Assembly (NCBI RefSeq): GCF_003334305.1
Contig: NZ_QOWS01000085.1
Origin: Escherichia coli
GTDB lineage: Bacteria > Pseudomonadota > Gammaproteobacteria > Enterobacterales > Enterobacteriaceae
Length of the DNA: 319 nucleotides
Direction: 5' to 3' (one strand)
Below, one piece after another: positions 1 through 319 of this stretch (within the stretch, counting starts at the first letter, position 1; every line of letters starts with the position of its first letter). The notes below the pieces were generated by a model, which was given only the letters and a program-made list of their open reading frames with translations, ran no database searches and was not told where the DNA came from. The position numbers and the translations under genes are program-made.

Positions 1-319
1 TTCTTCCGGAAGCGGGCTGCTTTTCCCCGATTCAAAAAGCGGGGACAGAATGATGCATTCCGCTACCCGCAGGGCGTTAAGCTCGATCAGGAAAACAGCC
101 GTATTTTTCTGCCGAAACTGGGCTGGATGCGCTACCGGAACAGCCGTCAGGTCACGGGTGTTGTGAAAAATGTCACTGTCAGCCAGTCCTGCGGTAAGTG
201 GTACATCAGTATTCAGACAGAAAGTGAAGTATCCACTCCGGCTCACCCTTCAGCATCAATGGTCGGGCTGGATGCTGGCGTGGCTAAACTCGCCACGCTG
301 TCAGATGGCACAGTCTTTG
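1..319 (+). CDS. tnpB: Internal fragment of a TnpB-type protein (IS200/IS605-family OrfB; RNA-guided RuvC-like endonuclease), truncated at both ends by the window
   Basis: Seen in sequence: frame 1 is open across all 106 codons, with no start or stop inside the window; + frame 3 has tga at 50-52 and + frame 2 has tga at 164-166. The translation contains the FPRFKKRG basic motif typical of the TnpB N-terminal half, and MVGLDAGVAKLATLSDG near the 3' end, matching the RuvC-I block (G-[IL]-D-x-G) of TnpB/Cas12-family proteins. From memory, not verifiable here: the peptide closely resembles enterobacterial IS609-like TnpB copies (e.g. E. coli insQ/ydcM). Position within the protein is inferred from the usual RuvC-I location at roughly residue 180-200 of ~400-aa TnpBs, so the window would cover about residues 90-200. 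Confidence 0.9.
1..319 (+). mobile_element. Interior of an IS200/IS605-superfamily (or IS607-type) insertion sequence or solo tnpB locus; element boundaries lie outside the window
   Basis: Inference from the tnpB coding content. tnpB genes occur within IS200/IS605 and IS607 elements and also as stand-alone copies. No element ends, hairpin ends or tnpA are visible, so the element type and its intactness cannot be determined from this window. Confidence 0.55.
259..319 (+). other. RuvC-I catalytic motif region of TnpB (MVGLDAGVAKLATLSDGTVF), with the presumptive catalytic Asp codon gat at 271-273
   Basis: Seen in sequence: codons 87-106 of frame 1. The spacing hydrophobic-G-L-D-x-G followed by a hydrophobic beta-strand-like stretch is the canonical first RuvC motif of TnpB/IscB/Cas12 nucleases (established knowledge). 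Assigning this Asp as catalytic is inference by motif position, not by alignment. Confidence 0.7.

Follow-up and report, generated by a model that had tools for sequence, protein, structure and literature searches.

IS608 of Helicobacter pylori is the model for single-strand "peel-and-paste" transposition by a Y1 TnpA transposase. This element carries imperfect subterminal hairpins at both ends, and inserts 3' of a fixed tetranucleotide, TTAC, without target duplication. The tnpA and tnpB genes are co-directional in IS608 and divergent in IS605. More broadly, a survey of the family identified TTAT as a frequent motif for left-end cleavage and TCAA for right-end cleavage (PMC9956272).

For TnpB, the companion protein, the closest well-described example is that of ISDra2 from Deinococcus radiodurans. 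Residue D191 is catalytic; the wedge (WED) domain binds the omega-RNA scaffold and helps to read the transposon-adjacent motif; WED residues T123 and N124 contact that motif, TTGAT; and the omega-RNA overlaps its own gene (PMC10097598). In IS605-family elements of Geobacillus stearothermophilus, a single motif serves both TnpA and TnpB, and cleavage of the donor joint (the vacant site) by TnpB retains the transposon (PMC10055086). Escherichia coli has its own member, IS609, composed of insP (tnpA) and insQ (tnpB). Our literature search found no direct experiment on IS609 InsQ: the reports comprise surveys, one purification, and the absence of transposition in K-12. The purification study included an "IS609" TnpB among nine candidates, and the text consulted gives no guided-cleavage result for it.

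The window analyzed here, a 319-nt stretch of E. coli DNA, consists of codons 93-198 of insQ, the tnpB gene of IS609 (IS200/IS605 family). It is 100% nucleotide-identical to that element, from which it differs in no respect. Positions 1..319 (+ strand) are an internal fragment of the 402-codon coding sequence in frame 1, as judged from identity and the open frame; they correspond to CDS nucleotides 277-595, in frame, and base 319 opens codon 199. Frame 1 contains 0 stops across 106 codons, versus 1, 5, 7, 3 and 6 stops in the other five frames, and the computed probability of an open frame of such length in random sequence is ~0.006. The translation matches NCBIfam models guided_TnpB (E = 4e-20, 72.4 bits) and IS200_TnpB (E = 1.2e-19), each over residues 1-104, as well as Pfam OrfB_IS605 over residues 70-104; the 72.4 bits lie below the whole-protein cut-off of 100 because the window is only a fragment. 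A preliminary description, made from the sequence only, had placed the window wholly inside a tnpB gene, had remarked on the uninterrupted frame, and had proposed a search against TnpB and OrfB_IS605 models. That identification proved correct. No Rfam family matched either strand of the window. Two smaller ORFs, of 38 codons in frame +2 (window 50-166) and 22 codons on the minus strand, were set aside as chance: both are unsupported, and both are nested in the well-supported frame.

The window alone fits several copies, loci and replicons, and statements about the full gene rest on the 100%-identical copies. Of 5,426 complete E. coli genomes searched by megablast, 4,885 (~90%) contain the window, at a median of two places per genome and with many 100% matches; the annotation over the latter reads "insQ: RNA-guided endonuclease InsQ/TnpB family protein". 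In DH5alpha, a K-12 derivative (locus L001), the window is L001:5001-5319, within the coding sequence 4725-5933. Strain W2-5 provides a second locus (L002), whose insQ is identical to the L001 copy. At both loci the ORF continues 276 nt upstream to a GTG start and 614 nt downstream through TGA (stop included), with 0 frameshifts and 0 stops. The short pseudogene remnant that a frameshift or stop just outside the window would have signified is thereby excluded for these matching copies.

The name IS609 rests on the RefSeq product name together with the K-12 literature. IS609 insQ is an already known, catalogued insertion-sequence gene, also called ydcM, and is routinely listed in E. coli genome surveys; COG0675 is named after it (COG name "InsQ"). 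Thus, the system class is known, as the preliminary description had stated, and not novel. We hold with high confidence the explanation as a whole, namely an intact IS609 insQ with an RNA-guided retention role that we in part infer.

A different address for the window was also considered. The same gene is present on 520 plasmid records (from Escherichia, Salmonella, and Shigella) and in the P1-like phages (phage-plasmids) SJ46 and RCS47, so the window might come from a plasmid or phage-plasmid copy of IS609, or from another enterobacterial species, rather than from the E. coli chromosome. Such an origin is very improbable: those copies are mostly 90-99% identical; the sole 100% "plasmid" match is a 4.8-Mb record, which is to say a chromosome; and among the matches listed, all of the 100% ones are E. 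coli chromosomes. It would alter the address of the gene and not its nature.

Full-length InsQ (402 amino acids) scores 378.6 bits against the NCBIfam model NF040570 (guided_TnpB), for which the curated cut-off is 100; against the narrower "exception" model NF038281 (IS200_TnpB), it scores 305.8 bits, under the cut-off of 425. Pfam matches reveal the canonical TnpB domain order: the amino-terminal HTH_OrfB_IS605 (residues 1-48, 3e-13); the OrfB_IS605 (RuvC) core (residues 162-277, 1.7e-34); and the zinc-ribbon Cas12f1-like_TNB (residues 304-370, 7e-23). Residues 3-372 align with solved structures of ISDra2 TnpB (PDB 8exa, 8bf8, and 8h1j; E = 2.6e-55). In this alignment the InsQ residues D183, E267 and D363 correspond to the ISDra2 RuvC triad D191, E278 and D361, and the CCCC zinc finger residues C334, C337, C353 and C356 correspond to C331, C334, C351 and C354. 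Both the triad and the zinc cysteines are invariant across 16 E. coli copies. Among solved structures, an "AI-designed RNA-guided nuclease" (PDB 9yyg and 9yyh; E = 1.1e-62) matches InsQ best, slightly ahead of the natural ISDra2 TnpB. Assignment as a type V CRISPR effector was rejected (Cas12f2, 92 bits against a cut-off of 450; C2c8, 141 bits against a cut-off of 350). The search for a CRISPR array was negative: the 10.3-kb locus is free of tandem repeats, and spaced direct repeats are absent from the 4 kb centered on the element.

Domain limits within the window were transferred from the ISDra2 structures (8bf8 and 8exa; PMC10097598) through the residue alignment; boundaries are approximate. 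The window begins with the carboxyl-terminal end of the REC domain (1..54, + strand; InsQ 93-110, roughly ISDra2 93-116), and continues with the second segment of the OB-fold WED domain (55..228, + strand; InsQ ~111-168, roughly ISDra2 117-176). Within the latter, codons 24-25 of the window (70..75, + strand) encode Q116-G117, which align with the motif-contacting T123/N124 of ISDra2. We infer that this difference fits a different motif, TTAT, for IS609. Next come the linker between the REC lobe and the nuclease lobe (229..252, + strand; InsQ ~169-176) and the first 22 residues of the RuvC domain (253..318, + strand; InsQ 177-198), a segment that includes the GLDAG motif and overlaps the start of the Pfam OrfB_IS605 match. 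The GAT codon at 271..273 (+ strand) encodes Asp183, which by alignment is the first residue of the RuvC triad.

InsQ and ISDra2 TnpB thus are alike in length class (402 versus 408 amino acids), domain order, D/E/D triad, and CCCC finger. InsQ differs in having a 15-residue insertion after RuvC-II, in lacking six residues in REC, and in bearing Q116-G117 in place of T123-N124; the target motifs are TTAT for IS609 and TTGAT for ISDra2. A further difference from ISDra2 is that the tnpA of IS609 is divergent and adjacent.

The limits of the element are evident from copies at five independent loci: ydcL-ydcO, ybcM-yedK, a split TetR/AcrR gene, gltX-yfeD, and a split yajI gene. Homology starts right after TTAT on the left and stops at ...GGAGGATGTCAA on the right, and flanks otherwise are unrelated. 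TTAT precedes the left end at 5/5 loci, and the five insertion sites have only this TTAT and the right-hand GGAGGATGTCAA in common. When the K-12 flanks were joined in silico (L001 to 4233, then 5977 on), the resulting sequence was found uninterrupted in 2,044 genomes, which defines the K-12 copy as L001:4234-5976 (1,743 bp); copies without a 5-bp deletion are 1,748 bp long. Strain HH97, for example, carries an empty site identical to the joined K-12 flanks at 208/208 positions. Because the precise empty site equals the joined flanks, insertion occurred without target duplication. Roughly 60% of E. coli genomes carry the element at ydcL-ydcO, and ~38% have the site empty. One apparent empty-site "footprint" of 42 nt, in strain HH45 (L087:411-440), consists of a 19-G run plus the last ~23 nt of the right end. 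This was rejected: a 19-G run in place of almost the entire element most likely arose in assembly, and not by biological deletion.

Imperfect subterminal hairpins lie on the same strand at the two ends, CCCCATCCTTCAGGGCGGGG on the left and CCACGTCCTTCAGGGCGTGG on the right, and there are no terminal inverted repeats. The right hairpin is followed by 10 nt ending in TCAA. These end hairpins, together with TTAT insertion and the TCAA end, are hallmarks of IS200/IS605 "peel-and-paste" elements. IS609 resembles IS608 in its hairpins, its tetranucleotide target, and the position of its right-end TCAA 10 nt past the hairpin; unlike IS608, it targets TTAT rather than TTAC, and its two genes point away from each other, as they do in IS605. 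The preliminary description had looked to the flanks for any novelty. The flanks proved to be those of an ordinary IS200/IS605 element.

The right end also touches on the neighboring genes. The terminal TCAA (L001:5973-5978, ~655 nt past the window end, and the same in L002) provides a TGA stop codon to the host gene that converges on it: ydcO in K-12, and yedK in W2-5. At the empty ydcL-ydcO site, the TAA stop codon of ydcO itself overlaps the TTAT target. Insertion of IS609 replaces this stop codon and adds one Tyr codon to YdcO.

The partner gene tnpA is divergent; 7 bp separate its start codon from that of insQ. Strain 120 carries a complete IS609 copy with an intact TnpA of 143 amino acids, including the HVH motif and the conserved Tyr. 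This protein scores 145.7 bits against NF033573 (transpos_IS200, Y1; cut-off 55), and its RefSeq name is "IS200/IS605-like element IS609 family transposase". In the K-12-type copies, which match the window at 100%, tnpA is a pseudogene, which has suffered a 5-bp deletion and a premature stop and has also lost its stop codon. The gene is dead in all ten ydcL-ydcO copies analyzed, which together display at least six different lesions, among them E62*, Y76*, L96*, a deletion of 5 bp, and a pair of distinct 1-bp deletions; all ten have, in addition, lost the stop codon. Since tnpA is dead in K-12-type copies, the element cannot move on its own. Mutation-accumulation lines of K-12, which carry one IS609 copy, acquired no new insertions (PMC5009759).

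Two features of these tnpA sequences deserve comment. The lost stop codon reflects a stop-to-Gln change (L001 ~4286-4288; equivalents in L004-L006 and L088-L095) that lengthens the frame through the left end. The change is present in all ydcL-ydcO copies plus several others, and is the sole visible tnpA lesion in strain SRY206 (L094). Separately, the copy at ybcM-yedK (L002:4234-5976) shares with L001 an identical insQ and the same 5-bp tnpA deletion, and carries L96* instead of Y76*. The presence of a tnpA-dead element at two loci implies either mobilization in trans by the TnpA of another copy, or gene conversion between copies.

The contrast with insQ is marked. The gene is intact in six copies at five loci, for which pairwise dN/dS values are 0.20-0.35. 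Disabling events in these first six copies numbered 5/16 for tnpA versus 0/51 for insQ (Fisher p = 4.5e-4). Eight further copies were added to form an orthologous set of ten from ydcL-ydcO. The 1,209-nt insQ ORF is open in 10/10 of these, which differ from one another by 22 synonymous and 30 non-synonymous changes (omega ~0.39); the non-synonymous share is 58% (30/52), versus 78% under neutrality (binomial p = 0.001). These patterns support the view that insQ is under purifying selection though tnpA is dead. Part of the signal could instead stem from gene conversion by active copies, and not from selection at the locus itself; exchange between copies is a possible contributor because the insQ genes of L001 and L002 are identical at different loci. 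The preliminary description had judged the gene functional rather than decayed, and the comparisons, with the ORF intact in 16/16 copies, catalytic residues kept, and omega at ~0.2-0.4, support that judgment. Selection appears to have maintained tnpB and its RNA well past the death of tnpA, at a site for which both occupied and empty alleles circulate.

A scan of one genome per species identified 175 relatives at 57-94% protein identity, mainly in the Enterobacterales and Burkholderiales, with other Proteobacteria represented too. The same divergent tnpA is present in 56/86 of the relatives' loci examined. The loci all end alike: the motif GTAGGAATCC, a stem-loop, and then GGAGGATGTCAA, beyond which sequences are unrelated. 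The final 200 nt of 48 loci, once aligned, yielded a consensus structure of 31 pairs in seven helices, with compensatory double changes in 18 pairs; one covarying pair, for example, is GC in 24 sequences and CG in 22. Paired cells amount to 95.5%, versus 84.3% in column shuffles and 39-52% when partners were slid by 1-3 columns, and 0/500 shuffles matched the observed values on any of five measures. In K-12, the helices span L001:5820-5974, which is -157 to -3 relative to the right end. It shares its sequence with the final ~110 nt of insQ, comparable to the overlap between the ISDra2 omega-RNA and its tnpB (PMC10097598), and it lies outside the window, ~500 nt farther downstream.

Helix 7 is also the DNA hairpin recognized by TnpA, so that its covariation is ambiguous with respect to RNA or DNA function. 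Helices 2, 4 and 6, which lie outside the TnpA hairpin, covary too. A conserved RNA structure spans the insQ 3' end and right end, and its covariation is strong, as would be expected of an omega-RNA. No Rfam family scored at or close to its gathering threshold; the weak matches at the insQ 3' end, to RNAs that overlap tnpB genes, were all sub-threshold (HgcC, 22 bits; sot0042, 17 bits; RAGATH-18, 25 bits), and served as a lead only; the structure was judged independently, by covariation. Expansions of 20-40 nt are present in several relatives within two helices of the RNA (columns 115-140 and 180-195 of the alignment; for example L029, L042, L054, and L057), and the right-end hairpin is expanded likewise in L033 and L048. 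Because such expansions occur in several relatives, the RNA scaffold tolerates stems of variable length. One of the relatives, an InsQ of 81% identity accompanied by tnpA on a 2,057-bp contig (L016), is ascribed to Streptomyces mutabilis JCM 4400. This probably represents assembly contamination, given that all other relatives at that identity are from the Enterobacterales.

At the other end of the gene, a sigma-70 promoter scan upstream of insQ found no site above chance; the sole match in 1.9 kb is on the other strand, and within chance expectation. A hairpin over the insQ GTG start (L001:4722-4740), detected in a terminator scan, is not conserved in relatives and was dropped. In relatives (L007-L080; for example, L007:2485-2500), a TATAAT-like hexamer precedes the tnpB start codon by only 7-9 nt and overlaps the opening codons of the divergent tnpA. 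This spacing would suit a leaderless or near-leaderless tnpB mRNA. The E. coli hexamer is TATCAT (L001:4710-4724).

A model for IS609 can be framed by analogy with ISDra2 and the Geobacillus elements (PMC10097598 and PMC10055086), from which nuclease activity, TTAT recognition, and RNA expression would carry over to the InsQ system. InsQ would bind the structured 3'-end RNA as its omega-RNA, whose 3' tail, transcribed from DNA just past the right end, would provide a guide of ~16 nt. The K-12 omega-RNA would end beyond the right end, after ...GGAGGAUGUCAA+UAUCGGUUUCUGUCAG. The complex of InsQ and RNA would then cut DNA in which TTAT, the presumptive nuclease motif, is followed by the guide sequence. 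The target so defined would be the vacant site that is left when the element is absent or has been excised, and the vacant ydcL-ydcO allele, found in 2,044 genomes, indeed consists of TTAT followed by the putative K-12 guide, TATCGGTTTCTGTCAG... Cutting would favor repair from an occupied copy, such that the element is kept and inheritance is biased toward the occupied allele.

In K-12-type IS609 tnpA is dead and no excision is expected, and retention is proposed for IS609 by analogy. A retention role here would have no excision to counteract, because tnpA is dead and the element does not transpose in K-12. It is conceivable, and in our estimation unlikely, that the tnpA-dead IS609 at ydcL-ydcO is a selection-maintained module of TnpB plus a guide in exact agreement with the empty allele, and that it acts independently of the transposase, cutting empty alleles as they come in or arise by recombination. 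If true, this would constitute an allele-level drive, or a recombination barrier, within the species.

What else might account for an open insQ beside a dead tnpA? The K-12-type gene could be an inert relic, unused, with its ORF open simply through shortness of time or through gene-conversion refresh by active IS609 copies. The death of tnpA in 10/10 ydcL-ydcO copies, the lack of IS609 transposition in the K-12 mutation-accumulation lines, and the failure to find a promoter upstream of insQ all suit this explanation, as does the identical insQ at two loci, which suggests inter-copy exchange; moreover, ~4.9% of point mutations are nonsense, so that zero stops in 52 changes is only mildly unlikely (~0.07, an estimate). 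Disuse nevertheless sits poorly with the depletion of non-synonymous changes, with the invariance of catalytic and zinc residues in all copies, and with the adjacent tnpA, which at the same age has accumulated its six or more different disabling lesions where insQ has accumulated none. The tnpA contrast and the non-synonymous depletion together disfavor the relic, to which we assign a low probability. Alternatively, because insQ is kept under purifying selection while its tnpA no longer works, and roughly 60% of E. coli genomes have this locus occupied, the protein might have been domesticated for a host role, such as the RNA-guided transcriptional control exerted by TldR proteins. The RuvC triad of InsQ is intact, unlike those of nuclease-dead exapted TnpBs; the element ends also are intact, and its presence or absence is polymorphic, with a clean empty site; and copies occupy many unrelated loci, plasmids, and phage-plasmids, where the flanking guide differs each time and provides no common target. 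InsQ thus displays none of the TldR-type features (lost RuvC residues, a fixed non-transposon context, and a conserved target). Nor are there conserved non-IS neighbors, and the suggestion in the preliminary description that a non-IS neighborhood might betray domestication finds no sign in the flanks. Domestication is very improbable, and an intact insQ with a retention role is preferred.

As a discovery, the window is of little consequence: the gene is catalogued, and the mechanism and structure of the family have been worked out already. Nonetheless, comparative data suffice to read off the exact limits of the element, its target motif, the guide position, and the RNA structure. K-12 harbors an apparently intact TnpB together with a dead transposase, which is relevant when this strain hosts TnpB experiments, and its IS609 is a handy natural setting in which to ask why tnpB should outlast tnpA.

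Two phage records bear on annotation of the gene. That of Escherichia phage If1, a filamentous phage of 8.5 kb (U02303.1/NC_001954.1, positions 6409-6469), contains 61 nt that are 96.7% identical to window positions 259-319; the match sits within a hypothetical ORF, and may be an IS609 fragment or a chimeric clone. In Morganella phage IME1369_01 (KY653118.1, 35231-35549), a copy 97.5% identical to the window is labelled "putative virulence protein", a misannotation of tnpB.
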